This document shows, piece after piece, positions 23,402 to 45,731 of a stretch of DNA of 64,000 nucleotides. The notes under the pieces are model-generated. The model ran no database searches and had not been told where the DNA came from. It saw nothing but the letters and a program-made list of their open reading frames with translations. Positions within the stretch are counted from its first letter, which is position 1. Every line of letters begins with the position of its first letter. The stretch is from a bacterium (GTDB taxonomy: Bacteria > Zhuqueibacterota > QNDG01 > JAFGCO01): the NCBI GenBank assembly GCA_016932575.1, contig JAFGCO010000011.1:10851-74850 (forward strand). Direction: 5' to 3'. A program made the position numbers and the translations under genes.

Positions 23402-23452
23402 GAAAAATGTGGACGATAAAACACCGCAGAATATTTTGAAAGGAGGCTCTAA

Positions 23453-27574: not shown

Positions 27575-30193
27575 ATGCAAAATGCCAGTATCCTGATCGT
27601 TGAAGATGAAGTGATTATCGCCTATGATCTTCAGCAAAAGCTGCAAACGTTGGGTTATCAGGTTCCCGATATATGCACCTCTGGTGAAGAAGCTATAGAA
27701 AGCACAAACAAACATCTGCCGGATCTCATTCTTATGGATATCCGGCTTCATGGAAATATGTCAGGAATCGAAGCCGTCGAACAGATCCAAAAACAACACG
27801 ACATGCCCATCATATACCTGACTGCTCATACGGACACATCCACCCTTGAAAAAGCAAAGCATACACGGCCTGAGGGGTACCTTGTCAAGCCTATTGATGA
27901 CGAACAATCCATTTACGGCCCAATAGAAATCGCATTACACAAACATCAGATGGAAACCATTCTCAAGGAAAGGGAATCCTGGTTCGCTTCAACTCTGCAA
28001 AGCATTGAAGATGCAGTTATTACCATCGATCATCTGGGAAATATTACTGTAATGAATCCCAAAGCCCAAATGATGACAGGCTATTCAAAATCACCCTCTC
28101 CTGAACAAAGCATCGATGAAATTATCCCTCTGTCGTTAAATAAAAAATCCATATATATCTCCAGGTGGATGCAGGAAACCATCAAGACCGGTCAATCCAT
28201 CAATCTTCCGGATAACACACTCCTTCATAACCTGAATGGAACCGTTTTTAATATCGAAGGCACAATTACTCCAATCTTCTCACCAAAAAACGAGGTGTTG
28301 GGCGCGGTTTTTTCCTTTCGAAATATCACTGAAAGAAAAAAAATGGAAGACCGGCTTCGAATGACCCAGTATTCTCTGAATCATGTCGGTGAAGGCGCTT
28401 TCTGGATACGAAAGGATGCTACTTTTGCCGCTGTGAATGAAACCGCCTGTAAAATGCTGGCTTATACTCGTGAGAGATTACTTCAAAAAACAATTGTTGA
28501 CATAGACAGTAATCTAAGCTTGAAGCGTTGGAATTTATATTGGGAGACGTTAAAGGAAAAACAGCATCATATTTTCGAGACAACACTATTCACAAGAGAC
28601 GGCCGAAAATTGCCTGTGGAAATCATTGGCAACTATCTGGAATATAATGAGGTCGAATACAATTTTGCAATTGTCCGCGATATTACGGAAAGAATCATTA
28701 ATATAAAGGCACTGCAGGAAAGTAAACGAAAGCTCAGTTTATTCGCACGGAATTTCAGGGGGATCGCTTATCAGGTACAGGCCAAAGGCGAGCATGAATA
28801 TATTATTTCACATCTTGAAGGCGATCTGGAACGTATCACAGGTTATCCCTCTGAACTGTTTCACTCGGGAGAAATGCATTGGAATCAACTTATTCATCCG
28901 GATGATCTCGACAAAGTGCTTTCAGAAGACAAAAAGATGATCACCATATCAGACTATACAGCTGATAATGAATATCGGATCATTAAAAAGGATAAAAGTA
29001 TCCGTTGGGTCAGAGATATTGCCCGTATCATTGAAACGGAAAAGAATCTGATCTATCAAGGTTCGATTTTTGATATCACCGAACGTGTACAAGCGGAACA
29101 GGCGCTCAGAGAAAGTGAAGAAAAATATCGAAGTCTCGTCGAACTGGCAAGTGATGGCATTCTCATTGTTCATCAGGGATGGATTCGTTTCGCAAATAAC
29201 AGGCTAATCTCAATGTTCGATCTTCCGGCCAGCAAAGTGCTGAATACCCGATGGCTGGATCATGTTATTCCTGAAGACAAATCCATAGTAACAAAATACT
29301 TTAAAAATCAAATGCATAATAAAGAGATAACAGAAACCTTCGAGATTCAAATCTATCTTCGCAACAATCAAATACTGCCTGTCGAAATCAGTATGGGACA
29401 TATCCCATTCCATGAAGAAAAAGCATATTTGGTCTTTGTCCGTGATATTCGCGAACGGAAGAAAGCAGAATTGGCCATGCAGCAGGCCCAACGCACGTAT
29501 CATCTGGCTTCATTGGGAACTCTGGCTGCCGGCATTTCTCATGAAATCAATCAGCCGCTGACAGCGCTGAAAGTTAAAGTGGACGGCCTGCTCTATTGGG
29601 GAAAAGAAAATCCTGATATTTTACAAAGAAATTTAAAGAGCAATTTGCATTTTATCTCAGAGCAGGCAGAAGAAATCAATAAGATCATCAAACACATGCG
29701 CTCGCTTATCTATCAGGAAAAAGGTCCCTTAACCAAAATCCATATCAATCAGGTTATCCAAAAAGCCTGCCGTTTTGTGGAGCAGAGACTTTCCTCTCAT
29801 GGCATTGTTCTCAATCTCAGATTAACCCCGCGAGATCCAAGCGTTCTCGCCATTGAAACGCCTTTGGAACAGATTGTATTAAATCTCATCACCAACGCCC
29901 TTAACGCATTGAATCGTACCGATCTGAATGAGAAAATCATCGAAATACAGACACAGCGCAGGCATGGTTATTGTTTTATCCATGTCAGGGATAACGGCCC
30001 CGGCATCCCGGAAGACAACATGAACCGGATTTTTGATCCATTATTTACAACGGAAAAAAATGGAAAAGGCATGGGACTGGGCCTTGCCATTGTGGAAGAA
30101 TTGCTAAGACAATTCAAGGGATCTATTAAGGCAAAAAATCAGACAACAGGTGGCGCTCAAATGACCGTACAGATACCATTAATTAATGAATAA
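27575..30193 (+). CDS. Hybrid REC-PAS(xN)-HisKA-HATPase sensor kinase
   Basis: The track start 27524 is TTG. ATG 27575 (MQNASILIVEDEVIIAYDL...) has AAGGTG upstream. Multiple PAS repeats. H-box ISHEINQPLTAL. HATPase GMGLGLAI. Confidence 0.8.
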   Translation: MQNASILIVEDEVIIAYDLQQKLQTLGYQVPDICTSGEEAIESTNKHLPDLILMDIRLHGNMSGIEAVEQIQKQHDMPIIYLTAHTDTSTLEKAKHTRPEGYLVKPIDDEQSIYGPIEIALHKHQMETILKERESWFASTLQSIEDAVITIDHLGNITVMNPKAQMMTGYSKSPSPEQSIDEIIPLSLNKKSIYISRWMQETIKTGQSINLPDNTLLHNLNGTVFNIEGTITPIFSPKNEVLGAVFSFRNITERKKMEDRLRMTQYSLNHVGEGAFWIRKDATFAAVNETACKMLAYTRERLLQKTIVDIDSNLSLKRWNLYWETLKEKQHHIFETTLFTRDGRKLPVEIIGNYLEYNEVEYNFAIVRDITERIINIKALQESKRKLSLFARNFRGIAYQVQAKGEHEYIISHLEGDLERITGYPSELFHSGEMHWNQLIHPDDLDKVLSEDKKMITISDYTADNEYRIIKKDKSIRWVRDIARIIETEKNLIYQGSIFDITERVQAEQALRESEEKYRSLVELASDGILIVHQGWIRFANNRLISMFDLPASKVLNTRWLDHVIPEDKSIVTKYFKNQMHNKEITETFEIQIYLRNNQILPVEISMGHIPFHEEKAYLVFVRDIRERKKAELAMQQAQRTYHLASLGTLAAGISHEINQPLTALKVKVDGLLYWGKENPDILQRNLKSNLHFISEQAEEINKIIKHMRSLIYQEKGPLTKIHINQVIQKACRFVEQRLSSHGIVLNLRLTPRDPSVLAIETPLEQIVLNLITNALNALNRTDLNEKIIEIQTQRRHGYCFIHVRDNGPGIPEDNMNRIFDPLFTTEKNGKGMGLGLAIVEELLRQFKGSIKAKNQTTGGAQMTVQIPLINE

Positions 30194-31649
30194 TGGTGGC
30201 ATAATGATGCATATTTTACTGGTTGAAGACAACACAGGAGTCCGGGAAAGTCTGGTCGAATTACTCCAGAATCTCGGCTATCAGATCACAAGCTGTGAAA
30301 ATGGAAAAATTGCCATGGACATCCTCAATCAGTCGGATATTAATGTGGTCCTGTCTGACATCATGATGCCGGTAATGAATGGACATCAATTACTGAAAAA
30401 TGTTAAAGACAAGGATTCGTTAAAACATATTGAAGTCATCTTATTTACAGGACATGGAGACGTGAAAAGCGCTGTGGAAGCCATGCGTGACGGCGCATAC
30501 GATTATTTGGTCAAACCGGTGAATGTTGAGGAATTGGACGTGGTTTTAAAACGGCTGAATGATCTTTTTCAATTAAAAACAGACCATGAAAAACTCAGCC
30601 ATCATTTTAAGGAAGAAGTTCAAAAAGCCACGCAGGAAATTGAGAATGAATTAATTGCCATTCGCAAGGCATTTGCACGGGAAATTGGCACAGTTGAAAT
30701 TGGTATTTTTTCAAAATCCATGAAACAGGTTTTCGGACGCGCAGAAAAACTGCATCAGAATCCCGACATTCCTGTACTCATTGAAGGAGAAACAGGGACT
30801 GGAAAAGAGCTGGTGGCTCATTTCATCCATTATGGGCATGGCGATGTGGTCGCTCCTTTTGTGGGATTAAACTGTGCGGCACTCAGCGCCAATTTATTTG
30901 AAAGCGAGCTGTTCGGTTACGAACCCGGTGCATTTACCGGAGGCAGCCCCAGGGGTCAAAAAGGCAAACTGGAACTAAGCGGGAATGGTTCTCTTTTCCT
31001 GGATGAAATTACGGAAATGCCGGCTGAGCACCAGGCCAAGTTGTTACGGGTAATTCAGGAACGGGAATTTTTCCGTGTGGGGGGGTTAAAAAAAAAGGAA
31101 GCCAAAGCCAGGTTCATTTGCGCAACGAACCGGAATGTAAAAGAAGCCGTTAAAAACGGCTCTTTTCGTCAGGATCTATACTTCCGGTTGAATATCGGAC
31201 ATATCCGTATTCCTCCGCTGAGAGAGCGTCCGGAATCTATTTTACCAATGGCTCTTTTATTTTTGAAACAACTGACAAAGCAGAAAGCCACACATTTCCA
31301 GAAAATTTCTCAAAAAGCCAGTGAGATGCTTCAAAAGTATCATTGGCCGGGCAATGTACGTGAGTTAAAAAATCTGATCGAACGCATTGTTCTGTACTGG
31401 GATGACGAAGAAATCCGGCCAACTCATGTTCGTGCCTGCCTTGAAAGTATCCCAAGCCCTTATATGTCCAATAAAATAAACGAAATCCCTGAAGAATTCC
31501 AAATGCCCGGAAACCGTATGGATTTAAATAAACATGTATTGACCCTGGTAAAAAAGGCCCTGGATATGCATCAGGGCAATCAAACGCAGACCGCCCAGTA
31601 TCTTGGAATTTCTGTCCGCGTCTTGCATACATATATGAAAAAATTATAA
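30186..31649 (+). CDS. Sigma-54-dependent response regulator (NtrC family; REC + AAA+ activator + Fis-type HTH)
   Basis: ILLVEDN...DVVLSDIMMP, Walker A GETGTGKE, GAFTGG motif ESELFGYEPGAFTGG, C-terminal HTH. It overlaps the upstream kinase gene by 8 nt. Alternative starts are ATG 30204 or 30207. Confidence 0.85.
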   Translation: MNNGGIMMHILLVEDNTGVRESLVELLQNLGYQITSCENGKIAMDILNQSDINVVLSDIMMPVMNGHQLLKNVKDKDSLKHIEVILFTGHGDVKSAVEAMRDGAYDYLVKPVNVEELDVVLKRLNDLFQLKTDHEKLSHHFKEEVQKATQEIENELIAIRKAFAREIGTVEIGIFSKSMKQVFGRAEKLHQNPDIPVLIEGETGTGKELVAHFIHYGHGDVVAPFVGLNCAALSANLFESELFGYEPGAFTGGSPRGQKGKLELSGNGSLFLDEITEMPAEHQAKLLRVIQEREFFRVGGLKKKEAKARFICATNRNVKEAVKNGSFRQDLYFRLNIGHIRIPPLRERPESILPMALLFLKQLTKQKATHFQKISQKASEMLQKYHWPGNVRELKNLIERIVLYWDDEEIRPTHVRACLESIPSPYMSNKINEIPEEFQMPGNRMDLNKHVLTLVKKALDMHQGNQTQTAQYLGISVRVLHTYMKKL

Positions 31650-31715
31650 AAATCAAATAAAAAACTTCGGGTTCCATAAAAGACAACACTCTATCTGAAT
31701 AAGCAGGTTGCGCCA

Positions 31716-31745
31716 ATTGACAAATCCGTATACCAATCTGTCAAT
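31716..31745. promoter_or_regulatory. Inverted repeat ATTGACA-N16-TGTCAAT, candidate enhancer (UAS) for the downstream sigma-54 promoter
   Basis: It lies ~110-140 bp upstream of the -24/-12 element at 31856. Confidence 0.35.
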
Positions 31746-31855
31746 CCATGAAATTTCCACGTATTTCTTTATCATAATTTCTTTCAATTAAATAATCATT
31801 TTATTTCAATTTAATTAATAATTTATATAAGCTCCCGGTCGGAAAGAATTCAACC

Positions 31856-31871
31856 TGGCATAATTCATGCA
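31856..31871 (+). promoter_or_regulatory. Sigma-54 -24/-12 promoter (TGGCAT-N5-aTGCA)
   Basis: caaccTGGCATaattcaTGCAttt. GG and GC are correctly spaced, with one mismatch at the first T of the -12 element. It is ~90-170 nt upstream of the first chemosensory gene and directly downstream of the NtrC-like gene. Confidence 0.6.
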
Positions 31872-32023
31872 TTTAAAGTTTTGTTTATTGATTCGCTGAC
31901 TTTAAGAAAAATGACAGAGCATAGATACAATGCCGCGTTTAATCATTGATAAAGTTCATGACAGGAATGAAAAGGGATGCCGAAATGCAGCTTGCCAACG
32001 CTTTGAAGAAAGTGGGGTCTCCG

Positions 32024-33037
32024 ATGAAGCTCCTGATTATTGATGATCAACCTCAAGTAACAAACAGCCTTAAAGAAGCCATCGAGCCTGGAGGACATGA
32101 ATGTGTGGTATTTAACCAGCCCCAAAAAGCCGTTTCACATTTTCAGAACGAATACTTTGATGCCGTCATTACCGATTTGAAAATGCCTGAAATGGATGGC
32201 ATTCAAGTCTTAAAAATGATTCAAAAAAATCGTCCGGGCACTCCGGTGATTATCCTTACAGGATATGCCGACACACAAAATGCCATAGAAGCAGTAAATC
32301 TCGGGGCATACGGTTTTTTTCAAAAGCCGGTTCAAATTCAGGAACTGCTGGAATCTCTCAAACAGATCGAATTAAAAATTCAGGAAGACATGTTGAGGGA
32401 TATCCGACTGAACCAGTTGCAGGCAGAAAAGGAAAAAATGTCCACTGAACTGAAAGAACGCATCAACCAGACTCTTCAGCTCATCAGCAGCCTGTTGCGA
32501 ATGCAATACGGAAAAATGGAAAACAGCCAGGCAAAAAAAGCGCTTCATTCCGCCTATCAACGCATACATACCATGGCATTGATTCATGAACGTATTTATT
32601 CAGAAGGTCACGCAGCAAAACTGAATCTGGCTGAATATATCAAACGTTACATGAATACATTTTCACAAATCAATCAATTGAATGAGAAAAATATCACCAT
32701 TGATTTGCAACTCGAACCTGTCACCGTGGATGTCAATCATGCCATCCCCTGGGGTTTGGTATTTAACGAACTGATCGCCAATGCCATTTCTCATGCCTTT
32801 TCAGACTCCAATGGAAATGACAACAGAATTTATGTGTCTCTAAACCGAAATAAAAGCAATGCCATTACTTTGAAAGTCAGTGACAACGGAAAAGGAATCG
32901 ATCAAAAAATAAATATGGATGAATATGCTTCTTTAGGCATGAACCTGATTTCAAATATTGTACGATATCAGCTTAACGGAAATATCGATATTCAATCCAA
33001 ATCCGGAACCTGTATAAAGATTGTTAGCCCCTCATGA
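32024..33037 (+). CDS. Response-regulator receiver fused to a degenerate HisKA_2-like domain (phospho-His replaced) plus HATPase_c
   Basis: Receiver MKLLIIDDQPQ...AVITDLKMPEMDG. The DHp segment aligns with the HisKA_2 kinase at 14444..15865 ([24 protein letters not shown] versus EKEKMSTELKERINQTLQLISSLL), so HH is replaced by KE. HATPase follows. The track start 31946 is TTG. Confidence 0.7.
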   Translation: MKLLIIDDQPQVTNSLKEAIEPGGHECVVFNQPQKAVSHFQNEYFDAVITDLKMPEMDGIQVLKMIQKNRPGTPVIILTGYADTQNAIEAVNLGAYGFFQKPVQIQELLESLKQIELKIQEDMLRDIRLNQLQAEKEKMSTELKERINQTLQLISSLLRMQYGKMENSQAKKALHSAYQRIHTMALIHERIYSEGHAAKLNLAEYIKRYMNTFSQINQLNEKNITIDLQLEPVTVDVNHAIPWGLVFNELIANAISHAFSDSNGNDNRIYVSLNRNKSNAITLKVSDNGKGIDQKINMDEYASLGMNLISNIVRYQLNGNIDIQSKSGTCIKIVSPS

Positions 33038-33076: not shown

Positions 33077-33712
33077 ATGGACAATCAAGATCAAGTTAAG
33101 TATATCTGGCATCAGTGGGTCTGTTTTAAATTGGGCAATGAAGAGTTTGGTGTGGATATACTCAAAGTCAGAGAAATTGTACGCATCCAATCGATTACCC
33201 ATGTTCCACAGACACCTGATACAGTTGCCGGAGTGATCAATCTGCGAGGCAATGTCATTCCGGTAATCGATTTGCCCAAAAAGCTGGGTCTGCCTGAATC
33301 CAACCGGGACGACAAAGCACGAATCATTGTTTTTTTCGTCGGTGATAAACTGATCGGAATGATTGTAGATCATGTCGAACGTGTACTGCGTATCAGAAAA
33401 GAGCAGATTGAATCGCCTCCGGATATTGGTGCAGGCAGAATTCAGGATTATATTGAAGGCATGGGAAAAGTTGAGAAAGACCTGATTGTCTTACTGAATA
33501 TCGACAAAATATTAACCGAAGAAGATATTATTCAAATCGAAGATTTGAAAAAAATGAAACAGGCAACCGAACAAATAAAGGCATCGAAAATACCGCCTGA
33601 AAAAACTGTCAGAAAACCAGAATCCACATCGAAAACCGCAACGAAAAAAAAGACAAAATTGAATCTCCCGGTTGCTAAAAAAAAGAATCAGAAAAAATTA
33701 TCGAAAAAATAA
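33077..33712 (+). CDS. cheW: CheW-like coupling protein with a lysine-rich C-terminal tail
   Basis: GVDILKVREIVRIQSITHVPQTPDTVAGVINLRGNVIPVIDL. Confidence 0.8.
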   Translation: MDNQDQVKYIWHQWVCFKLGNEEFGVDILKVREIVRIQSITHVPQTPDTVAGVINLRGNVIPVIDLPKKLGLPESNRDDKARIIVFFVGDKLIGMIVDHVERVLRIRKEQIESPPDIGAGRIQDYIEGMGKVEKDLIVLLNIDKILTEEDIIQIEDLKKMKQATEQIKASKIPPEKTVRKPESTSKTATKKKTKLNLPVAKKKNQKKLSKK

Positions 33713-33731: not shown

Positions 33732-35873
33732 ATGACTGTTAAAAAGATACTGGGCATAAGTATAATAATCTTGTCAGGTATTGATATCGGATTTGCCCAA
33801 AAGACCGAAGATCTGATGTCTATGTCTCTCGAAGATATCCTTAACATGAATATTTTTTCAGTATCCAAGCAGGCAGAGAATATCTTCGAGTCCCCGCTTT
33901 CAGCATCAGTGATTACTCGGGAAGATATTCTGAACTCAGGCGTGACCACATTAGAAGAGGCTTTACGCCTCGCACCCGGGTTGATTGTTCGTGAAGAAAG
34001 CCACGGAAATTATGATATTCATATTCGGGGTATGGATAATATCCCGCCGGGTAATTTTACATCATTCAGTGAAAATACCATGACATTGGTCATGATCGAC
34101 GGTCGAAAGGTTTTCAATCATCTGAATGGCGGCACATTCTGGGAAACACTTCCGATCGGCATTGATGAAATTGAACGTATCGAAATTATACGCGGTCCGG
34201 CTGCCTCCTTGTATGGTCCCAACGCAGTCACGGGTGTGATCCATTTTATTACCAGGGAGGCACATATAGACAAGTCTGGTATTTCTGGAAATATCACACA
34301 AGGGCACCCAAACTCATCAATCGGTGAACTGAATGCTTTTTATAAACCGAGGAATAATATGGGTATGAAAATCAGCGCTATTGGGGAACAAAGAGAACGG
34401 TTTCAGGACACCTATCATTCATATTTACATGATGCAGAAGTGCCTTATGATTCGCTTCGGCCTTATCGAATCGATCCTTCCACAGATCAGGGTTACCCTG
34501 AAATTAAAGACAAGAACATTTCAAAAAAACGCTGGAGCAGCACAATCAGATTGAATTGGGACATTTCCAAATCGATAAAACTTGATATAAGCGGCGGCTA
34601 TCAGGATTCAAGAGCACAAACCGTATTTATGGAAACTTTTGCCACACCATTAAGCATTCGTACTTCAAAAACAAGTTATGCCAATATCAATGCTACTATT
34701 TACGGTTTTCAGTTACAGATTTCCGGTCAGACGGGAATACAGGACATGAAAGAAAATTTTAAAATTGTATCGAAATTCGATATGCGCATGTTTGATGGTA
34801 ATTTAGAATACGCCTGGGAAAAAGGTCCGCTGAAACTCAGGCCCGGAATGAGCTGGCAGGAAGTAATGTACAAAGATACGCCTTATCTGACTCCTGAGCA
34901 GCTGGATATGGGGTATTTAAACGCTGAACGAACTCTGAGCAATTATGCCTATTTTTTAAGGACAGAATATCAGCCTGTCAATCCTGTCCGCATTATAGCT
35001 GCTCTGCGTACCGATTATTATAATTACCCGGATACGGCCTATATTAATTATCAGCTGGCTGCAACATATCGAATAAATGGCAACAATATCATTCGAGGAG
35101 TCTATTCACGAGCCAATCGCGGTCCCTTTTTCATGGATATTTATACGGATGTTTCTGAATATATTGACGAAAAACAAATTGAATATCTGGGCAACAGAAA
35201 TTTACGATTACCATTAACAGATATGGCTGAAATTGGTTTTCGCAGCCGACTTTCAAAGCGAGTGCAAATGGATATTGAACTCTATTACAGCACAACCCGG
35301 GATCTGACCAGCCTTGATGTAAATACGATTGGATATATTGAGAATCAACCTTCAAATTTCAGCAGTCTGGGATATATCTACCACAATATTCGTTCGACAG
35401 CACGGCAGATGGGAATCACAGGCAATTTCAGCATCACCTTGAGTCAGTCATTAAAAAGTCGTTTTTACGGTTCAATCCAAAAAACGGAACTTGAAGATTT
35501 CGGCTGGAAAACCTCACCCTTTGAATTACAACCTGAAGAAGGATCACTTATACATAAAAATACTCCGGCATTTTATGGCGGCCTTTTACTCACATATCAT
35601 CCTTCCCATTCATGGACAGTAAACGGGAGCATTTATTATCTGGGTTCTCATATGTATCGGCATGATTACGCCTCGATAGATGAAGCCAATGGTGAAATAA
35701 AGCTGAAATCCAGACTCATTCCGGCAATCCATGTGAGATATAAATTTTTCAAAGAAAATTCGGTATACTTCACCCTGAAAAATTTCATTACCGATCAACG
35801 GGAATTCGGTTTTGCAGAATCTACCGGCCTGTCCATATTCGGAGGATTCCGGTGGGCATGGGCAAAGCCATAA
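33732..35873 (+). CDS. TonB-dependent outer-membrane receptor
   Basis: Signal peptide MTVKKILGISIIILSGIDIGFAQ. Plug domain SPLSASVITREDILNSGVTTLEEALRLAPGL...IERIEIIRGPAASLYGPNA. About 700 aa of beta-barrel. The track start 33672 is an upstream extension. Confidence 0.75.
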   Translation: MTVKKILGISIIILSGIDIGFAQKTEDLMSMSLEDILNMNIFSVSKQAENIFESPLSASVITREDILNSGVTTLEEALRLAPGLIVREESHGNYDIHIRGMDNIPPGNFTSFSENTMTLVMIDGRKVFNHLNGGTFWETLPIGIDEIERIEIIRGPAASLYGPNAVTGVIHFITREAHIDKSGISGNITQGHPNSSIGELNAFYKPRNNMGMKISAIGEQRERFQDTYHSYLHDAEVPYDSLRPYRIDPSTDQGYPEIKDKNISKKRWSSTIRLNWDISKSIKLDISGGYQDSRAQTVFMETFATPLSIRTSKTSYANINATIYGFQLQISGQTGIQDMKENFKIVSKFDMRMFDGNLEYAWEKGPLKLRPGMSWQEVMYKDTPYLTPEQLDMGYLNAERTLSNYAYFLRTEYQPVNPVRIIAALRTDYYNYPDTAYINYQLAATYRINGNNIIRGVYSRANRGPFFMDIYTDVSEYIDEKQIEYLGNRNLRLPLTDMAEIGFRSRLSKRVQMDIELYYSTTRDLTSLDVNTIGYIENQPSNFSSLGYIYHNIRSTARQMGITGNFSITLSQSLKSRFYGSIQKTELEDFGWKTSPFELQPEEGSLIHKNTPAFYGGLLLTYHPSHSWTVNGSIYYLGSHMYRHDYASIDEANGEIKLKSRLIPAIHVRYKFFKENSVYFTLKNFITDQREFGFAESTGLSIFGGFRWAWAKP

Positions 35874-35901
35874 CAATTCCAGTAATAAAAGGCAATCTAT
35901 C

Positions 35902-36144
35902 ATGAATATAAAAACGATCGCAGAATTCTTTTTATCGATTCTATGCCCGGGTTTTCTTTTCAATCTTCAGACCCGGGAGATCGACAGTAAAATTCTGCTG
36001 AATTTCACTTTAACGCATCATATCCATACGAATATCGATCTGTTTGTGAATACACGCAACGTATTGGGTAATAACTCCCAGGAATTTGGATTTACCGACA
36101 ATACAAACCGGCTCTGTCTGTCAGGCCTGCGTTTTGAATATTAA
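35902..36144 (+). pseudogene. Duplicated C-terminal fragment of a TonB-dependent receptor (80 codons)
   Basis: ...VNTRNVLGNNSQEFGFTDNTNRLCLSGLRFEY aligns with the C-terminus of the adjacent receptor (...KNFITDQREFGFAESTGLSIFGGFRW). It ends in the canonical terminal aromatic residue. It is in a different frame from the full gene. Confidence 0.35.
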
Positions 36145-36169
36145 TAACGGCTCAATCCTGGAGGCTATG

Positions 36170-36694
36170 ATGGCCAAATTGTTTATAAAAATATTCATTC
36201 TGATCATGACAGGCATACTCATTCTCTTGCCTGTTTCACTGACGGCTCAGACAGAAAATACACCTGCGAGTCTTGCTGTTGCTCTGACCTTGAAATTGGC
36301 CGCTTTTGAAAAAAATATCGCGTCACAAGAAAATGTGACAATATTTGTTCTGGGAGCGCCTGATGTAGCTGTTGAGCTACAGAACGTCATCGGAAGTGCG
36401 ATTGGCAAAGCGACACTGACTGCCGTATCATCCGGAGATACATTGCCGGAACAGCCGCCCTCTTTACTGTTTGTCGGTTCTGAAGCCGATATCAATCAAG
36501 CCGTTGAATATGCAAAAAAGCACAACATCCTCAGCATCACAGGCGTGCCGCAGTTTGCCAGCAAAGGAGTAATCCTCGGAATCGGCATCGGAACAAACGG
36601 GAAACCCGTTGTTACATTAAACCTGACTTCAACGATCGAAGCGGGTATTTCCTGGAATCCTGCCATCATGAAAATCGCAAAAACAATCAAATAA
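36170..36694 (+). CDS. Second YfiR-like (DUF4154-like) periplasmic protein
   Basis: Signal peptide MAKLFIKIFILIMTGILILLPVSLTAQ. It aligns block-wise with the protein at 15872..16444 (ILSITGVPQFASKGVILGIGIGTNGKPVVTLNLTSTIEAGISWNPAIMKIA versus ILTVGDETNFSKDGGMINFIIKKKKIRFEINSEAVKQSGLKMSTKLLKMA). It lies 17 nt upstream of the first MCP. Confidence 0.55.
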   Translation: MAKLFIKIFILIMTGILILLPVSLTAQTENTPASLAVALTLKLAAFEKNIASQENVTIFVLGAPDVAVELQNVIGSAIGKATLTAVSSGDTLPEQPPSLLFVGSEADINQAVEYAKKHNILSITGVPQFASKGVILGIGIGTNGKPVVTLNLTSTIEAGISWNPAIMKIAKTIK

Positions 36695-36710
36695 GGGGTA
36701 AGAATATACC

Positions 36711-38288
36711 ATGTTCGAAAAAATTCTTAAAATAAGCAATTGGAAAATCAAATGGCGCATCATTCTTCTGATCAGCCTGATTGGCATTTTTGTCAGCATT
36801 CTTCTTGGCATTTACGCTCCCGGACAGGCCAGAAAAATGGGTGAAGCCATCCTGAAAAACGACGTGGGGTTTATTGCCAATCTGCTTGCCGACAATCTGG
36901 CTCTGGGTATGCAGACCCGCTTCTTCGATGAAGGCGCTTCATTGCAGCAAACTCTCGATATGTTAAAATCATCGGATGGACCTCAAAAAGGAACCATAAG
37001 CCAGGTTTATATCTTTGATGAGACTGGCGCATTCATCAGAGCTATGAAGGATGAAAAACCAATAGAGTTCAAGCAAACAAACAACATTGAAATCATCAAT
37101 AAAGGTGCCTATTTTCGTGTATGGATCCCCATGCAGGATATCGATCAGGCTGTTGTAGGATATCTGGCAATTGATTTTTCAAAGAATTTTTTCAAAAGAC
37201 AGGCAGATAAGATCGCATGGCTGGGTCTTCTGATTGGAATAATAGTACTGGCAGGCACTTTATTGGGAAGTATTTATCTCAGTCGCAGCGTTTCACAGGG
37301 ACTGCGCCGGGCTACCAATATCATGATTGACATTGCCGAAGGAGAAGGGGATCTAACCCGTCGTTTGCCTGTGGAATCTGAAGACGAGGTAGGAGAACTG
37401 AATCGGTGGATCAATGCCTTTATGGACAGGCTGCATGATCTGATCTCCCAGGTAAGGGACAACACAGACCAGGTAATCGGGGCTGTCGGACTGATTACGA
37501 ACGCTGCCAATGAAATGGCCTCGGGTGCCGAAGAACAGACTGCTCAGGCTTCCGAAGTATCTGCCGGTGTGGAAGAAATGACGTCTTCTATCATGCAAAC
37601 TTCACAAAACGCCGGTGAAACAGCGAAAATCAGCGAATCCGCCACAAATAAAGCCAAACAGGGTTCTGAGGCCATGCAAATGACACGCGAGGGTATCCGT
37701 GATATTGTGACATCAACGGGTAAGATGCGAGATATCATTAAAACTTTAACAGAACGCGCCGGCCAGATTGATAAAATTATCCAGGTGATCGACAAAATTG
37801 CTGATCAGACCAACCTGCTTGCATTAAATGCCGCAGTTGAAGCTGCACGAGCTGGTGAACAGGGCAGCGGTTTCGCAGTAGTCGCCGATGAAGTGCGAAA
37901 GCTGGCTGAACGCACCACAAATGCCACCAAAGAAATCGCGGAAACCATTCAGGCCATACAGCAGGATACGCATATGGCATCGGAGTCTATGGATGAAACA
38001 AACAGTAAAGTGGCCCACGGTGAATGGGCAACAGAGCAAACTGAAAAAGTGCTCGGTGAAATCGTGGACATTGTAGCGCAGGCCATGGATATGATTCAAC
38101 AAATTGCCGCGGCCGCTGAAGAACAAAGCGCTGGTGCCGAAGAAATTTCAAGCAGTGTCGAAACCATCGCCAGTATCACCAAACAATCCGCGGTAAACGC
38201 AGAAACCATGGCCTCTGCCGCACATCAATTAAATAAACAAACAGCTGTCCTTCAGAAGGCAGTCAGTTTGTTTAAATTACGTAAATAA
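36711..38288 (+). CDS. Methyl-accepting chemotaxis protein (TM, ~150-aa periplasmic domain, TM, HAMP, MCP signalling domain)
   Basis: [29 protein letters not shown]. Signalling core [34 protein letters not shown]. Confidence 0.85.
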
Positions 38289-38415: not shown

Positions 38416-40047
38416 ATGTTTAAACGATTGAAATTCAGAGAAAAATTATTTTCAATCCCCCTGGCTATACTCTTTTTCTTTTTTATTGCTATCATCGGCG
38501 TCACGATTATCAACAACAGATCAGCACATAACCGGAACAGCTTAATCAGCGAGGGATACTGTCCGGCTTATATGATCAGTCGGGACATGGCGGAACAGCT
38601 CGTCACCATTAAAATGAAACTCCAGGAGGCTGTTTCGACTATGGAAGAAGAAACACTTCTTGAAGCGGATGAAGCAAGAAATACATTTATTGCTTTAATC
38701 AATAAGGGAATACAAAATCCGGTTTTAGAGGATAAAATTGATTTGCTTGTCAGACGCAAGCAGGATCTTGAAGAATACTACAATCATGCTTATAAAATCA
38801 GCAAGCAGATGATTAATGGTTATATGAACAGAGATCTCATGAACGAGCTGGAAACCATGAATAAAAGGTATGAAAATCTCAAAATCGGGATTGAACAGGA
38901 TCGCGACATTTTTGAAAATGAAATGAACATGAATTTTAAAAAAATGGAAAAAAACAACAACGTTTCTTTCTTTATTATGGTAGGTTTGATAATCATCTCA
39001 ATGACAACCATAGGTATTGTGAATTACCATATCACCAATACAATCACCAGAAATCTGAATGAGATGGTCAATATGATGAAAGCCATTGCAAAAGGTGAGG
39101 GTGATTTGACCAAAAGGCTCACTGTATATTCAAATGATGAATTGGGAGATCTGGCCAATTGGTTCAACCTTTTTGTAGAGAAATTACATGCGATTATCAG
39201 TCAGGTACGACTCAATACCAACCATGTATCCAGCGCAGCTTCCACCATAAGCGCCACTGCGATACAAATGGCTGCCGGGTCTGAAGAACATAACACGCAA
39301 GCCGGAGAAGTATCTGCCAGTGTTGAAGAAATGACTGCCTCGATTATGCAGAATTCCAAAAACGCGGGAGAAACAGCTAAAATTGCAGAAGAGGCCAGTG
39401 ACCGTGTAAAACAAGGCACAGAAACCGTACAGACCACTCGCCAGGGCATGGAGCGTATTGTACAAGCATCTTTAAAAATGGAATCCACCATTAAGTCACT
39501 GACCAATCGAGCATTACAAATTGGTGAAATCACACGGGTCATTGATAAAATTGCCGATCAAACCAACCTTCTTGCCTTAAATGCTGCTGTGGAAGCGGCG
39601 CGCGCCGGCGAACAGGGCAGCGGTTTCGCGGTGGTTGCGGATGAAGTCCGCAAATTGGCCGAACGAACTGCAGAAGCAACCGGTGAAATTGCGGAAACCA
39701 TTGAAGCTATTCAAAAAGATACCATTGAAGCTTCCGAATCCATGATGGAAACCAAAGATGCTGTCGATTCCGGAAAAAATTCTACAGAACAGGCAGAAAT
39801 AGTATTGGCAGAGATTCTTAATTCCGTGAATCAGGCCGTGGATATGATACAGCAAATTGCCGCCGCTTCAGAAGAACAAAGCGCCGGTGCTCAGGAAATA
39901 TCAGGCAGTATAGAACAAATGAATTCTGTCTCCAGACAAACCTCTGATGGTTCAGAGAAAATGTCTACAGCGGCCCAGGAATTAAAGTCACAAACAGAAG
40001 TGCTAAGCGCGCTGGTTAATCATTTTAAATTAAATCACAATATATAG
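38416..40047 (+). CDS. Methyl-accepting chemotaxis protein (second paralog, distinct sensor domain)
   Basis: The HAMP and signalling core are identical in type to the first MCP ([34 protein letters not shown]). SD AAAGGA. Confidence 0.85.
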
Positions 40048-40062: not shown

Positions 40063-40899
40063 ATGATAGAAACGCCATACATTGTCACATATCCGGTATC
40101 TGATGCTGAATTTCAATTGATACAAAAGTTAATATATGAGACTGCGGGAGTATACATCAAATCCCATAAAAAAACAATGGTTGCCAACCGTCTCAGAAAA
40201 AGACTGGAGGCTCATGGCTTCAGCAGGCATAAACAGTATTATGATTTTATCACAAAGACACCGGAAGGACGACAAGAATTAATTGAATTTATTAATTGCC
40301 TGACCACCAATGAGACTTTTTTCTTTAGGCATGGCGAACAATTGGATCTCTTGGCAGAAAAAATTATTCCTCAACTTCTTTCTGAACTGAAACCTTCGGA
40401 AAAACTCCGAATATGGTCTGCCGCCTGCTCATCGGGTGAAGAACCTTATTCTATTGCAATATTGCTCCATCACAAATTCAGGCCAGATGTCCTGAAACGT
40501 ATTGAAATAGTGGCATCCGATATTAACATTCAGGTATTGGAAAAGGCCAAACAGGGGGATTATAAACCGTATGCACTGCAAAAGGTATCGCCATTTTTCA
40601 AGGGTCATTACTTCGAAAAAAAATCCGAAGACAAATATCACCTGATCCGGCCAGTGAAAGAAATGGTTCAATTCTTTCGCCATAATTTATTAGAATCCAA
40701 TCACCACGGAAAATTTGATATTATTCTCTGCCGTAATGTAATGATCTATTTCGATATTGAAAGTAAAAAGAAAACACTTGGGCAAATAGACCTGTGTTTG
40801 AAAAAGGGCGGATATTTGATGACCGGTTACGCAGAAAGTCTTTTTAGAATAGAAACCACTTTAAAGTATATACAACCGACACTCTATTTCAAAGAATAG
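40063..40899 (+). CDS. cheR: Chemotaxis protein methyltransferase CheR
   Basis: RIWSAACSSGEEPYSIAILL is the CheR SAM-binding domain. Confidence 0.85.
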   Translation: MIETPYIVTYPVSDAEFQLIQKLIYETAGVYIKSHKKTMVANRLRKRLEAHGFSRHKQYYDFITKTPEGRQELIEFINCLTTNETFFFRHGEQLDLLAEKIIPQLLSELKPSEKLRIWSAACSSGEEPYSIAILLHHKFRPDVLKRIEIVASDINIQVLEKAKQGDYKPYALQKVSPFFKGHYFEKKSEDKYHLIRPVKEMVQFFRHNLLESNHHGKFDIILCRNVMIYFDIESKKKTLGQIDLCLKKGGYLMTGYAESLFRIETTLKYIQPTLYFKE

Positions 40900-40913
40900 G
40901 TAAATCGATCACC

Positions 40914-42995
40914 ATGCATACCATATTTGATGAATATAAAATTGCTTTTCTTGAGGAAACCCAGGAACATCTGATCATGTTGAACGACGATTTAATTGCT
41001 CTCGAAAAAAATCCTTCCCAGACTGATCTTATTGACAGCATTTTTCGTGTTTTGCATACCCTGAAAAGTTCGGCAGCCGCTGTCGGTTTCAATGAGCTGA
41101 GTCAGTTTGCCCATCGTGCTGAAGATCTGGTCCAACAAATTCGTAATAAACAGAGAAAAATCACTCCTAAACTTGTCAATCTTCTGTTCCAGGTGTTCGA
41201 TAACATTCAGGCATTCATCAACCTTGCTCAGTCAGATCATGCCGACAACAAAATATTCTCCCAAGTATTACGGCAGCTGATGGCCTATAAAAGCCGAAAA
41301 GGCCGAAAAAATATTCGTATAAAACCGGAGATACCCGCTTCTGCATCCGTGCAGCAGTTGCCGGCCGAGATTCAGACCCATCTTAATCAAAAGACCGGAA
41401 GAGATGCGACTCTCTACGAAATTTCTGTTTGCATTGATACTGCTGAACCCATTAAATGGCTGCGTTCGGAACTCATTCTAAATCATGCAAAAAAACTCGG
41501 GGAAATTGTCGCCATTGTACCGGACAAATCTTCATTTCAATCCATCGCGTTTGATGGCAGATTCAAACTCTTTCTTTCATCAAAACAAAACGCAGCAACC
41601 ATTCAAAAAAAGATTACGATTGATTTGATGAAAATTGAGAACATTCAAGTGCTTTCACCGAACGACATGACCAATTCAAACACTCCTCAATCATCCCAGG
41701 TTGAGAACAATCGCAATCGCTTCAACAATTACAAACAAGCCGGAAAAACCAATACCATTCGTGTGCCAATAAAAAAGCTGGACAGTATCATGCACCTTGT
41801 GGGAGAATTGGTGGTGGCCAATTCAGCGTTAAAAATACTGGAAAATCAGATTCATAATATTCATCGAGACGACCCGATCTCTCATGAAATGAATTTAATT
41901 GTAGATAAATTTTCCAAGCTGTCGACATCACTACAAAGCAGGGTGTTAAACACGCGTATGATGCCGATTTATATCCTGTTTAATCAATATAACCGGGTTG
42001 TCCGCGACCTTTCTCAAAAGGAATCAAAAGAAATTGATTTATTAATCAGCGGAGGCGAAACCGAGCTGGACAAAAAAGTAATCGATGCCATGGGCGACCC
42101 TCTGACCCATCTGATACGAAATGCAGTAGATCATGGTATTGAATCACCTCAGGAACGGAAAAGCAAAGGTAAAAACCTCCGGGCAAAAATTCAATTGTCT
42201 GCAGCACAGGCTGGAAACCACATCCTTATTTCAATTAAGGATGACGGAAGGGGTCTTGATTTAAATAAAATCCGAACGACCGCTGTGGAAAAGGGATTGC
42301 TGCAAAAAGAGGCAGCTGACAGTATGGCGGAATCCGAAATTCTGAATATGGTTTTTGAACCCGGATTCAGCACCGCTGAAAAGGTGAGTTCTGTTTCAGG
42401 AAGAGGGGTTGGTTTGGATGTGGTAAATAATATTATCAGCAGTCTGAATGGAACTGTTCAGATTAATTCCCGACAGAATCAGGGAACTGAATTTTTAATT
42501 ACACTTCCATTAACACTGGCAATATCCACAGTTATTGTCGTAGAAGCGGGGAAAAGCAGTTATGGTATTCCCATCAATGATATTCGCGAGACGATTAAAG
42601 TACCTGAGCATGAATTAAACACACGGCAATGCATTCGTGCACTAAACTTGGAAAATCGTGTTATCCCGGTATTGGGGCTTGATCAGATTCTTGACGAAGC
42701 ACCGGCGCGATTGCCCAAAGACATCCATGGGAATGTTCCTGTCATTATCGTCACTTACCAGGAGCGTGAAATCGGACTCATCGTCGATCGCATTATGGGT
42801 AAACAGGAAATTGTCATGAAACCATTAGAAGAACATTATAAATCAATTCGCGGTGTATCCGGGGCCGCTATTCTGGGGGATGGGACTGTAATTCTCATCG
42901 CCGATGTACTGGGCATCATACAAATTGTAAGAGACATTGAAAAAGAAGACCAAAAATCCCAAACAACCATAAAGGAAAAGGTACAACCATGTTAA
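40914..42995 (+). CDS. cheA: Chemotaxis histidine kinase CheA (Hpt, dimerisation, HATPase, CheW-like)
   Basis: Hpt VLHTLKSSAAAVGF. HATPase LTHLIRNAVDHGIE...GRGVGLDVV. C-terminal CheW-like domain. Confidence 0.9.
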   Translation: MHTIFDEYKIAFLEETQEHLIMLNDDLIALEKNPSQTDLIDSIFRVLHTLKSSAAAVGFNELSQFAHRAEDLVQQIRNKQRKITPKLVNLLFQVFDNIQAFINLAQSDHADNKIFSQVLRQLMAYKSRKGRKNIRIKPEIPASASVQQLPAEIQTHLNQKTGRDATLYEISVCIDTAEPIKWLRSELILNHAKKLGEIVAIVPDKSSFQSIAFDGRFKLFLSSKQNAATIQKKITIDLMKIENIQVLSPNDMTNSNTPQSSQVENNRNRFNNYKQAGKTNTIRVPIKKLDSIMHLVGELVVANSALKILENQIHNIHRDDPISHEMNLIVDKFSKLSTSLQSRVLNTRMMPIYILFNQYNRVVRDLSQKESKEIDLLISGGETELDKKVIDAMGDPLTHLIRNAVDHGIESPQERKSKGKNLRAKIQLSAAQAGNHILISIKDDGRGLDLNKIRTTAVEKGLLQKEAADSMAESEILNMVFEPGFSTAEKVSSVSGRGVGLDVVNNIISSLNGTVQINSRQNQGTEFLITLPLTLAISTVIVVEAGKSSYGIPINDIRETIKVPEHELNTRQCIRALNLENRVIPVLGLDQILDEAPARLPKDIHGNVPVIIVTYQEREIGLIVDRIMGKQEIVMKPLEEHYKSIRGVSGAAILGDGTVILIADVLGIIQIVRDIEKEDQKSQTTIKEKVQPC

Positions 42996-43618
42996 ATCTT
43001 GCCGAGGAATTAAACAAGGTCAATATCTCCAAATCCACCTTTAACCAAATCAAACACATCTTTCAATATGGATTTGACCAGGCGGCACATTCGGCTTCAA
43101 CAATGTTTGGTCGTCCCATGACCATCGATCAAATTCAAATCCAGATAAAAAGCGGTGAAACCTTTATGAATCAGGTTGAAAATGAATTTGAAACATGCTA
43201 TTTCGCCTCTATCATTAAAACCATGAACGACATGAACTTAAATATCCTCTTCCTCACATCTGAAACAGAAGGCATCGGGTTGTATCACTCATTGATTGGA
43301 GAAGAGAAAAGAGCAAATGTTTTCGTCACATCAGAAATGATTTCCGCTATTGGAGAACTCAACAATATTCTTGGAAGCGCCTTTATCAACAGCATTGCAA
43401 ATTACTTTAAAACAATTATTCATGCAACCCCCCCTTATAATACATTTGATATGTTGGGGGCTGTGGTTCAATGTATCGTATTGCAGGATGAGTTTTTAAA
43501 CAAAGAATTTTTATGTGTGGATGCGGCCATTCGTGAAAAGGAACATGAGGGATTTCTGATTCGATTAATCATCATGTCGAATAAAGATCTATTTATTGAA
43601 CTGGCAAACCGATTCTAA
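42989..43618 (+). CDS. CheC-like CheY-P phosphatase (CheC/CheX/FliY family)
   Basis: Two-repeat architecture. SAIGELNNILGSAFINSIANYF fits the S-x3-E-x2-N active-site motif. It overlaps the cheA stop by 7 nt. Confidence 0.6.
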   Translation: MLNLAEELNKVNISKSTFNQIKHIFQYGFDQAAHSASTMFGRPMTIDQIQIQIKSGETFMNQVENEFETCYFASIIKTMNDMNLNILFLTSETEGIGLYHSLIGEEKRANVFVTSEMISAIGELNNILGSAFINSIANYFKTIIHATPPYNTFDMLGAVVQCIVLQDEFLNKEFLCVDAAIREKEHEGFLIRLIIMSNKDLFIELANRF

Positions 43619-43626
43619 AAGGCCCG

Positions 43627-44100
43627 ATGGAAACCTTTTTAAAAATGTCCGAAATCCGGGTGGCAAAGGCACCTTGCGTGATTAAAACTGTTGTCGGATC
43701 ATGTATTGCGCTTTGTATTTGGGACAGGGAAACCAGGATTGGAGGAATGGCCCATATTATGATGCCAAGCAATAATGGAGATACTTCGGCACCAAAAGGC
43801 AAATACGCAGATCTTGCTGTGGATGCACTCATTAATGAAATGCAGGAAAAAGGTGCTGTCCTAAAAGATATGATTGCCACCTGTATAGGCGGAGCAACCA
43901 TGTTTGGAAAAGTCAACGGATTAAAACCGACAATTGGCGAACGTAATGTGGAAATTGTCAAATCTCTTTTAACAGATTACACGATTCCAATCATGATTGA
44001 ATCTGTGGGCGGATTTGCAGGAAGAAAAGTTGCTTTGGACTGTAATAATGGGGCTGTAACTGTGACGATGCTTAATAAAAAATTTCAGTATGATTGGTGA
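43627..44100 (+). CDS. cheD: Chemoreceptor glutamine deamidase CheD
   Basis: VVGSCIALCIWDRETRIGGMAHIMMP. Confidence 0.8.
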   Translation: METFLKMSEIRVAKAPCVIKTVVGSCIALCIWDRETRIGGMAHIMMPSNNGDTSAPKGKYADLAVDALINEMQEKGAVLKDMIATCIGGATMFGKVNGLKPTIGERNVEIVKSLLTDYTIPIMIESVGGFAGRKVALDCNNGAVTVTMLNKKFQYDW

Positions 44101-44106
44101 TAAACC

Positions 44107-45192
44107 ATGAGTCATTCAAAACAAGAAAAGCCCATAGGGGTTCTATGCGTTGATGACTCTCCTCTCATTCGTAAAATTCTGACGCGGATGATTGGAAAAC
44201 ATCCGGATCTGAAGCTTTTGGGGACCGCACATAACGGAAAAACGGCATTGGAAGAAATCGCCAGGAAAAAACCGGATGTTATTACCCTTGACTTTGAAAT
44301 GCCTGAAATGGATGGGCTGGAAACTTTGCGCCGAATCATGCAGGAAATGCCAACACCCGTCATCATGTTAAGCTCATATTCTGTCGAAGGTGCGGATTTA
44401 ACATTTCGAGCTCTGGATCTCGGCGCTGTGGACTTTATTGCCAAACCGCACAAGATTTTTTCTCGAAGCATAGAAGATATTGAAACGCAAATTTTAAATA
44501 AAATCCGCGCGGCCAGTCAGGTCCATGTTAAAAAAATGGATCCTGTTCAAATAAAATCTGCTCTCAACAGTCAGCATCTGCATAAAGAACATAAAAAATC
44601 AATCCGGATACGTGCCTGTGACTATGTCATTTCTATTGGAGTTTCCACTGGCGGACCATTGGCTCTAAAACAAATATTGCCGATGATACCGGCAGATATC
44701 AATGCTTGCTTTTTAATTGTGCAGCATATGCCGCCGGGATTCACAAAAGCATTGGCTGACCGTTTAAACGAAATTGCTTCTGTTGATATCAAAGAAGCGG
44801 ACGACGGCGATCTTTTGATGAGTGGTAAAGTCTATATCGCAAAAGGCGACCACCATTTGATCGTACGCGGAGCGAACCATGGCTGGATTACAGGACTCAG
44901 CATAAATGGGCATGTATCCAGTTTTCGGCCTTCGATTGACGTTTTAATGAACTCAACATCCAAATATTTTGAAGACAGAAATATTGGCGTCATCATGACA
45001 GGCATGTGCGCCGATGGTGTCAAAGGCGTTCAAAGCATAAAGAATAAAAACGGACGGGTGATTGCACAAGATGAACGGACATCCGTCATTTTTGGAATGA
45101 ATAAACTGGCAATACAGGCGGGTTATGTCGACGAAATCGTTCCTTTAAATCAAATTATTCCTAAAATTCTGGAACACATTAATTACGCGTAA
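44107..45192 (+). CDS. cheB: Protein-glutamate methylesterase CheB (REC + methylesterase)
   Basis: IGVSTGGPLAL, QHMPPGFT. Confidence 0.9.
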   Translation: MSHSKQEKPIGVLCVDDSPLIRKILTRMIGKHPDLKLLGTAHNGKTALEEIARKKPDVITLDFEMPEMDGLETLRRIMQEMPTPVIMLSSYSVEGADLTFRALDLGAVDFIAKPHKIFSRSIEDIETQILNKIRAASQVHVKKMDPVQIKSALNSQHLHKEHKKSIRIRACDYVISIGVSTGGPLALKQILPMIPADINACFLIVQHMPPGFTKALADRLNEIASVDIKEADDGDLLMSGKVYIAKGDHHLIVRGANHGWITGLSINGHVSSFRPSIDVLMNSTSKYFEDRNIGVIMTGMCADGVKGVQSIKNKNGRVIAQDERTSVIFGMNKLAIQAGYVDEIVPLNQIIPKILEHINYA

Positions 45193-45208
45193 AAGGAGGT
45201 GAAATCTT

Positions 45209-45718: not shown

Positions 45719-45731
45719 GGAGGATAGCTTA

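Follow-up and report, generated by a model that had tools for sequence, protein, structure and literature searches.

Three adjacent genes on the plus strand of a 64,000-nucleotide stretch of DNA from a bacterium of the lineage Zhuqueibacterota (GenBank assembly GCA_016932575.1, contig JAFGCO010000011.1, positions 10,851 to 74,850 of the forward strand; the whole stretch is called the window here) encode a TonB-dependent receptor (TBDR; this one is called TBDR-1), a YfiR-like, presumably periplasmic protein of the DUF4154 family and a methyl-accepting chemotaxis protein (MCP; this one is called MCP-1). The three genes lie inside a chemotaxis (che) operon and probably constitute one functional sensory unit that feeds the kinase CheA. 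They look like the chemoreceptor-output version of a widespread system in which a TBDR and a YfiR-like protein are combined with a CHASE8 kinase. A second DUF4154 gene, on the minus strand of the window, is paired with such a kinase and is called module 1; the DUF4154–MCP-1 pair with its TBDR is called module 2. The idea of a TBDR, a YfiR-like protein and a membrane sensor acting together is already present in NCBIfam for histidine kinases, and the novelty lies only in the chemoreceptor output. The direct observations are the domain identities, the folds, the remote homology, the structure of the operon and a strong conservation of gene neighbourhood.

The TBDR-1, DUF4154 and MCP-1 genes are flanked on the 5' side by cheW and on the 3' side by a second MCP gene and then by the genes from cheR to a CheY-like receiver, which is where a preliminary description of the window had placed the receptor: ahead of the second DUF4154–sensor pair and within the che operon. 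Intergenic gaps in the trio/che region are 16–30 nucleotides (nt), and a promoter/terminator scan of this region gave no convincing plus-strand intergenic terminator. The TBDR, DUF4154 and MCP genes are predicted to be transcribed together with a complete che operon.

Both small proteins of the two modules are DUF4154 proteins with a YfiR fold and are homologous, as judged from Pfam, profile alignment and structure modelling. The preliminary description had called them divergent YfiR-like paralogs, each encoded directly upstream of a membrane sensor (a HisKA_2 kinase in module 1 and an MCP in module 2), and this is borne out. Against PF13689, the module 1 protein scores 165 bits and the module 2 protein 37.3 bits (E 3.5e-9; gathering threshold 24.9 bits). 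Their mutual identity is 16%, and the profiles of the two subfamilies align end to end (hhalign, 141 columns, E 8e-5). Inspection of the module 2 sequence and its AlphaFold2 (AF2) model reveals an N-terminal hydrophobic helix (residues 2–18), a candidate export signal, then a segment ending in SLTAQ and a disordered linker. The model has a predicted local distance difference test score (pLDDT) of 88.3, and its top Foldseek matches in the PDB are the YfiR structures 4yn7, 4yna, 4zhu and 5eb1, with template modelling scores of 0.63–0.75 (0.65/0.73 for 4yn7). A spurious second DUF4154 match next to an accidental TBDR in the che operon is a highly improbable explanation. The weak Pfam score (37 bits), the 16% identity to the module 1 paralogue and a score of 19.7 bits (E 7e-4) on NCBIfam model NF053591, which has a cut-off of 125 bits, would all suit it, but the Pfam match exceeds its gathering threshold, the AF2 model is confident with YfiR as its top structural match, the subfamily profiles align over their full length and the gene set is kept in many contigs, so that this explanation is in effect already refuted.

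Judged by sequence, neither window protein is YfiR proper: on the YfiR model NF053586 (cut-off 85 bits), module 1 reaches 46.3 bits and module 2 gives no match at E<=1e-3. Module 2 has no adjacent OmpA-like YfiB and no CHASE8-GGDEF YfiN, its neighbours being CheW, the TBDR and the MCP, and module 1 is accompanied by HisKA_2 and hybrid kinases with no YfiB or GGDEF partner. The likeness to YfiB-YfiR-YfiN that had been drawn at the outset therefore stands for architecture and homology, but not for membership of the YfiR family, for the cysteine pairs of YfiR (discussed below), for an OmpA-like YfiB or for a GGDEF output. The module 2 subfamily is small: a search of 5.8 billion proteins gave 12 cluster representatives. 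Conservation is highest in the C-terminal segment LNL..T....WNPAIMK (beta7, alpha3 and alpha4) and in alpha1 with the alpha1-beta1 loop; WNPAIMK is invariant and lies on the C-terminal surface. YfiR binds both YfiB and YfiN through a conserved surface (PMC4655355), and the conserved region of the MCP-type subfamily corresponds to that surface, which by analogy suggests that a protein-docking surface has been retained.

Three linked models in NCBIfam describe this architecture: NF053590 (TOL_0244 family TonB-dependent receptor), NF053591 (TOL_0243 family YfiR-like periplasmic protein) and NF053592 (sensor histidine kinase, YfiR-like protein-associated). The two module 1 proteins exceed the curated cut-offs of the latter two models (165.7 bits vs 125 for NF053591 and 223.9 vs 194 for NF053592), and module 1 is best classified as an ordinary member of the curated system minus the TBDR. 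Module 2 falls below every curated cut-off (YfiR proper, TOL_0243/0244 and CHASE8), yet it is demonstrably homologous and has the same architecture. RefSeq gives the members of the trio generic names: 'TonB-dependent receptor', 'YfiR family protein' and 'ATP-binding protein' (e.g., on Sphingobium indicum B90A pSRL1; SIDU_RS18035-18045). A full-text literature search found no paper that links DUF4154/YfiR-like proteins with TBDRs or chemoreceptors and no experimental paper on the canonical trio; the canonical system is known from annotation, not from experiment.

The DUF4154 family is large, with 23,341 cluster representatives at 50% identity (module 1 paralogue as query, E<=1e-3). The gene neighbourhood of the canonical type was surveyed in 80 loci that carry a DUF4154 gene of the module 1 type, obtained in a search from an 11-sequence DUF4154 alignment, scanned with local profiles and distributed over Acidobacteriota, Verrucomicrobiota, Gemmatimonadota, Nitrospirota, Bacteroidota, Desulfobacterota, Armatimonadota, Elusimicrobiota and other phyla. 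A TBDR lies directly upstream of DUF4154 in 65 loci (49 on the same strand and 16 divergent) and elsewhere in the cluster in four more, which gives 69 of the 76 loci that could be assessed (91%; 4 of the 80 were not assessable for a TBDR). Same-strand TBDRs of these loci score 599–734 bits on NF053590. A sensor with a CHASE8-type N-terminus follows DUF4154 in 77 of the 80 loci; among 74 such sensors scanned, HATPase_c occurs in 69, HisKA in 61, a receiver domain in 37 and GGDEF-EAL in one, and none has an MCP domain. Canonical loci often have tandem TBDRs (L029, L048, L059 and L070), tandem DUF4154 genes (L030, L045 and L059) or both, and proteins of 340–476 amino acids (aa) with two DUF4154 domains also exist (P0014–P0018, P0021 and P0022). 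Such tandem and fused copies of DUF4154 and TBDR hint at heteromeric complexes or a 2:2 stoichiometry; YfiR is a dimer.

Contexts were likewise gathered for members of the module 2 DUF4154 subfamily and for homologues of MCP-1, which yielded 16 loci with enough flanking sequence. A TBDR is in the same cluster as DUF4154/MCP in 12 of them, and four arrangements occur. In the first (the window, L001 and L004) the order is cheW-TBDR(-TBDR)-DUF4154-MCP-MCP-cheR and onwards; in the second (L115) it is MCP-TBDR-TBDR-DUF4154-MCP-cheW-cheR and onwards; in the third (L113) cheW-MCP-cheR-cheA and further genes are followed by two response regulator genes, the TBDR and DUF4154. In the fourth, a DUF4154-MCP pair that is not part of a che operon is accompanied by a stand-alone TBDR in divergent or same-strand orientation (the P0008 contig, L087, L089–L093 and L095, the last with its TBDR 1.5 kb upstream of DUF4154-MCP). 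The gene 3' of an MCP-type DUF4154 encodes a sensor with the N-terminal domain of MCP-1 in all contigs with downstream sequence with the exception of L113, whose MCP gene lies at the start of the operon instead of after DUF4154; the output domain of these sensors is usually MCPsignal and twice HAMP-GAF. The subfamilies co-vary, with the DUFb type always found with an MCPN-type sensor and canonical DUF4154 with CHASE8. No siderophore, vitamin or glycan-utilisation genes and no inner-membrane transporter occur in the MCP-type loci of relatives. TBDR linkage survives relocation, inversion and duplication, a pattern that is classically taken to mark functional coupling. The context survey, in which the trio is kept in four arrangements and NF053590 is the best family for the receptor, thus settles a doubt that the preliminary description had attached to its own proposal: the receptor is neither fortuitously adjacent nor part of a conventional substrate locus. 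Other proteins occur at some MCP-type loci. In L006, two MCP-type DUF4154 genes (570-1091 and 4386-4892) flank an opposite-strand gene (1110-4196) for a 1028-aa protein with a CarboxypepD_reg domain, which could be a different outer-membrane partner. In L116, a 444-aa protein without a Pfam match (7920-9254) is encoded upstream of DUF4154 in a DUF4154-MCP locus that has no TBDR, and it may be an alternative outer-membrane partner.

From its N-terminus onwards, TBDR-1 consists of a signal peptide, a short conserved segment with the TonB box in it (EDLMSMSLEDILNMNIFSVSK), a plug and a barrel. Its best NCBIfam family is NF053590 (TOL_0244) at 176.5 bits, below the cut-off of 645, and siderophore, B12 and haem families give 70 bits or less. 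Pfam finds only the plug and barrel in TBDR-1 and no FecA-type STN signalling domain. The TonB box was located by aligning the segment NMNIFSVSK to the TonB-box region of CirA, and ~20 mature residues precede it. An N-terminal segment of the form DLxxLSLEELxxxxV(T/S)SxSK is common to DUF4154-adjacent TBDRs of at least four lineages (L001–L115); in TBDR-1 it occupies window positions 33798..33860 (residues ~23–43), and alignment to CirA divides it into a ~12-residue extension and the TonB box. This segment has no match at E<=10 among solved structures, and a metagenome scan with the single TBDR-1 sequence as query gave no matches.

Orthologues of TBDR-1 form a clade (L001-a, L004 and L115-a; identity 43–71%), to which a second receptor, TBDR-2 (L001-b and L115-b), is a paralogue at 35% identity. 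The TBDRs of L113 and L092 are a separate lineage, 40–43% identical to the TBDR of the canonical kinase locus L030, those of L089 and L091 are a further lineage, and some TBDRs beside MCP-type DUF4154 genes have B12- or haem-like best NCBIfam families. L001 and L115 have both TBDR-1 and TBDR-2 in intact form (TBDR-2 at 7852-9975 and 7304-9433, respectively). In the window, the 80-codon open reading frame (ORF) between TBDR-1 and DUF4154 is what an in-frame internal deletion has left of TBDR-2, with the signal peptide joined directly to the C-terminal end. Residues 1 to ~27 correspond to the signal peptide of intact L001 TBDR-2 (N-terminus 40% identical) and the last ~55 to the C-terminus of the same protein (61% identity, E 3e-28). 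The window belongs to a metagenome-assembled genome, in which the GenBank proteins of module 2 are MBN2102895.1, MBN2102897.1 and MBN2102898.1; the accession skipped between those of the TBDR and the DUF4154 protein, MBN2102896.1, is apparently NCBI's call of the remnant ORF.

MCP-1 is built from a first transmembrane segment (TM1), a predicted Cache-like periplasmic domain of ~130 aa (about residues 38–165), a second transmembrane segment (TM2), HAMP and a signalling domain. The model of the periplasmic domain shows a PDC/Cache fold that resembles the domains with which LuxQ and LapD bind their partners; CHASE8 belongs to the Cache-like clan (PMC8846402). Periplasmic profiles of 15 MCP-type and 77 CHASE8-type sequences were compared with hhalign, with 60 block-shuffled controls. 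They match with a probability of 85.8% and a score of 37.1 over 106 collinear columns, against a mean of 12.7 +/- 2.5 and a maximum of 22.0 for the controls. From this profile-profile comparison we conclude that the MCP-1 periplasmic domain is probably a remote CHASE8 relative; it is not a member by the Pfam criterion. Pairwise BLASTP of the MCP N-terminus with that of the module 1 kinase is not significant. A profile of the whole N-terminus (TM, CHASE8, TM and HAMP) matches MCP-type sensors at E 1e-13 to 1e-5, but this was rejected as CHASE8 homology and attributed to the TM and HAMP segments, because a periplasm-only profile is not significant on single MCP sequences (E 2–5). CHASE8-annotated MCPs among the full-length homologues were considered as a bridge and likewise rejected: they are a different family, in flagellar che operons, without YfiR-like or TBDR neighbours. 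Pfam CHASE8-MCPs in L109 (7001-8542) and L110 (22-1548), for example, lie beside fliC, fliS and fliD and have no DUF4154 or TBDR neighbour. Both loci also encode a conserved protein of 235–253 aa without a Pfam match; its gene is the next one after the CHASE8-MCP gene in L109, and in L110 a dCache MCP gene lies between the two.

Several results weigh against an interpretation of the trio as a single envelope-spanning unit on the YfiBNR pattern. A TBDR is absent from 4 of the 16 MCP-type loci and from 7 of the 76 canonical loci, including L007 and L008, the nearest relatives of module 1. Module 1 itself has no TBDR next to it, since TBDR-1 and the remnant are the only window ORFs that match the TBDR profile. 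The DUF4154–sensor pair can therefore work without a TBDR. The MCP-1 sensor domain appears to be only remotely related to CHASE8, which is a caveat on the YfiN analogy: besides the failure of the periplasm-only profile on single sequences, Pfam finds no CHASE8 match at E<=10 in the MCP N-termini of the window, L001 and L004. The existence of CHASE8-MCPs without YfiR-like neighbours means, moreover, that CHASE8 alone does not imply a YfiR-like partner. The two conserved cysteine pairs of YfiR (Cys71-Cys110 and Cys145-Cys152; PMC4655355) have no equivalents among the 23 members of the MCP-type subfamily that were compared, where cysteines number 0–2 and are not conserved (the module 2 protein has none), and therefore the DsbA/redox input described for YfiR (PMC4655355) cannot apply. 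TBDRs beside MCP-type DUF4154 genes belong to at least three or four lineages, a heterogeneity that is explained by ligand swapping no less well than by a conserved docking interface. The shared N-terminal motif was compared within DUF4154-linked TBDRs, and it may also occur in other TBDRs.

The loci without a receptor give some substance to a narrower interpretation, in which the unit comprises only the YfiR-like protein and its sensor and reports on the state of the periplasm or envelope, while the TBDR is a transporter of nutrients that is regulated together with the pair but has no signalling role. Module 1, its closest relatives and a quarter of the MCP-type loci would accord with this, as would the adjacency of DUF4154 and sensor (77 of 80), which is tighter than that of the TBDR. 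It is nevertheless improbable in view of the 91% TBDR linkage across many phyla, which is kept through divergent inversion, a move to the operon end and tandem duplication; NCBIfam curators, furthermore, define the TBDR family by its linkage to YfiR-like proteins, and the loss of the redox-sensing cysteines of YfiR removes the best-known input that is independent of a TBDR.

How such a unit would work can be proposed by analogy with YfiBNR; we infer the protein-protein contacts, the direction of regulation, the ligand and the output, whether flagella or another target. The YfiR-like protein would dock on the Cache-like domain of the MCP through its C-terminal surface (beta7/alpha3/alpha4, with WNPAIMK) and set the signalling state of the MCP. 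A ligand-bound TBDR would then expose its periplasmic N-terminal segment (DLxxLSLEELxxxxV-TonB box), the exposed segment would capture the YfiR-like protein, and the MCP freed in this way would change CheA activity. This YfiBNR-like partner switch is plausible for the trio but falls somewhat short of an even chance; it is favoured here because there are no uptake genes at the loci and because the protein-docking surface is conserved. The explanation as a whole, an envelope-spanning unit with a partner switch, we hold to be slightly better than evenly balanced. Its generalization is more tentative: TBDRs may act as outer-membrane chemosensors whose surface occupancy is relayed by a soluble YfiR-like shuttle to a chemoreceptor or a histidine kinase.

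Alternatively, the TBDR could import a ligand that is too large or too scarce for porins, and the YfiR-like protein could act as a single-lobe binding protein that presents this ligand to the Cache-like domain of the MCP, the outcome of which would be chemotaxis towards TBDR substrates. The DUF4154 fold corresponds to a single lobe of the type I periplasmic binding proteins (likewise in PMC4655355), Foldseek matches include L-Trp-binding 3lft and Rhodothermus substrate-binding proteins, the heterogeneous TBDR lineages next to DUF4154-MCP are what specificity swapping would be expected to produce, and the order of TBDR, binding protein and sensor looks like an uptake locus. Yet the loci hold no inner-membrane transporter and no siderophore, vitamin or glycan-utilisation genes, DUF4154 is single-lobed with no conserved pocket identified, its conserved residues map to the surface by which YfiR engages its protein partners, and the characterised homologue, YfiR, works by sequestration. 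Import and presentation is accordingly considered rather unlikely.

Table 1. Positions of the module 2 and module 1 genes and of the surrounding signalling genes in the window
Feature	Position	Strand	Evidence or remark
TonB-dependent receptor (TBDR-1)	33732..35873	+	Pfam Plug 77 bits, TonB_dep_Rec barrel 60 bits
Remnant of second tandem TBDR (TBDR-2)	35902..36144	+	BLASTP vs intact L001 TBDR-2
YfiR-like DUF4154 protein, module 2	36170..36694	+	PF13689 37.3 bits
MCP (MCP-1), module 2	36711..38288	+	Pfam MCPsignal 180 bits, HAMP 39 bits
CheW	33077..33712	+	Pfam CheW 140 bits; 20-nt gap to TBDR-1
Second MCP, periplasmic domain unrelated to that of MCP-1	38416..40047	+	Pfam HAMP, MCPsignal
cheR	40063..40899	+	Pfam/NCBIfam
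cheA	40914..42995	+	Pfam/NCBIfam
cheC-like	42989..43618	+	Pfam/NCBIfam
cheD	43627..44100	+	Pfam/NCBIfam
cheB	44107..45192	+	Pfam/NCBIfam
cheX	45209..45718	+	Pfam/NCBIfam
CheY-like receiver	ends 46094	+	Pfam/NCBIfam; last gene of che operon stretch 40063..46094
REC-PAS-HisKA kinase	27524..30193	+	Pfam
Sigma-54 activator	30186..31649	+	Pfam
REC-HisKA_2 kinase	31946..33037	+	Pfam
Canonical YfiR-like protein, TOL_0243 family, module 1	15872..16444	-	Pfam DUF4154 165 bits (E 1.5e-48)
TM-CHASE8-TM-HAMP-HisKA_2-HATPase kinase, module 1	14444..15865	-	Pfam CHASE8 52 bits, HisKA_2 105 bits
REC-PAS-HisKA-HATPase-REC hybrid kinase, downstream gene of module 1	12493..14421	-	Pfam

The genes around the trio are partly conserved with it (Table 1). 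The second MCP is kept after MCP-1 in L001 and L004, and it gives only fragmentary matches to the CHASE8-type profile. The regulators encoded at 27524..33037 occur in the same gene order 5' of cheW in L001 and L004, and the che pathway may be tied into a two-component/sigma-54 cascade instead of, or besides, flagellar control. The hybrid kinase downstream of module 1 probably belongs to the same phosphorelay as module 1, a role suggested by its position only. Glycoside-hydrolase-like proteins, a GT2 glycosyltransferase, a GH3 enzyme and a sulfatase are encoded at 2089..11290, 21422..26119 and 57602..59554, and these surrounding genes also include an amidohydrolase with a C-terminal FlgD_ig-like domain. 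The glycoside hydrolases and other genes of this kind suggest a polysaccharide-degrading organism; in relatives, the trio has no link to any of these polysaccharide-type genes.

Iron chelates, vitamins and glycans are examples of the scarce or bulky nutrients, barred from porins, that TBDRs handle. To our knowledge, the sensing of such compounds beyond the FecA/ECF-sigma (extracytoplasmic function sigma factor) route is poorly known, and we know of no described case of chemoreceptor input from a TBDR. If the proposal made here is true, a second and very widespread type of TBDR cell-surface signalling exists that is independent of STN domains and ECF sigma factors, and bacteria could steer, or regulate genes, by substrates that never diffuse freely into the periplasm. 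Demonstration that a YfiR-like shuttle links TBDRs to kinases or chemoreceptors would reveal a major envelope-spanning route and would extend the YfiBNR principle beyond cyclic di-GMP (c-di-GMP). The chemoreceptor variant offers a clean and fast read-out in CheA activity, and cultured carriers of the canonical system (e.g., Sphingobium indicum B90A pSRL1) are experimentally approachable.

Among known systems, the NCBIfam trio is compared first: there, as in module 2, a TBDR, a presumably periplasmic DUF4154 protein and a TM-Cache-like-TM-HAMP sensor are encoded side by side in the same order. Module 2 differs in its output, an MCP signalling domain that would act on CheA and that is found in 0 of the 74 canonical sensors, and in its sub-cut-off scores (176 vs 645 for the receptor and 19.7 vs 125 for the cysteine-free DUF4154 protein, with no NF053592 match). 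YfiBNR/TpbB of Pseudomonas aeruginosa, HmsCDE of Yersinia and AwsXRO of P. fluorescens share with it a DUF4154 gene beside a CHASE8/Cache-like sensor and an outer-membrane partner, and YfiBNR also has the same YfiR fold with the conserved surface in the same place. The outer-membrane partner here is a 22-strand TBDR and not an OmpA-like lipoprotein, and the output is predicted to be CheA control and not c-di-GMP synthesis. As in FecA-FecR-FecI, the occupancy of a TBDR by its ligand would be passed through the periplasm to an inner-membrane signalling protein, but the window TBDR lacks an STN domain, the relay would be a soluble DUF4154 protein instead of a membrane anti-sigma factor, and the output would be a chemoreceptor or kinase instead of an ECF sigma factor. 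LuxP-LuxQ, MBP-Tar and TorT-TorS offer a last parallel. Their partners are two-lobed binding proteins without a genetic tie to a TBDR, whereas DUF4154 is single-lobed; in these systems, as proposed here, a soluble partner with a binding-protein fold engages the periplasmic domain of a sensor, and LuxQ is itself among the structural matches of the MCP-1 domain.

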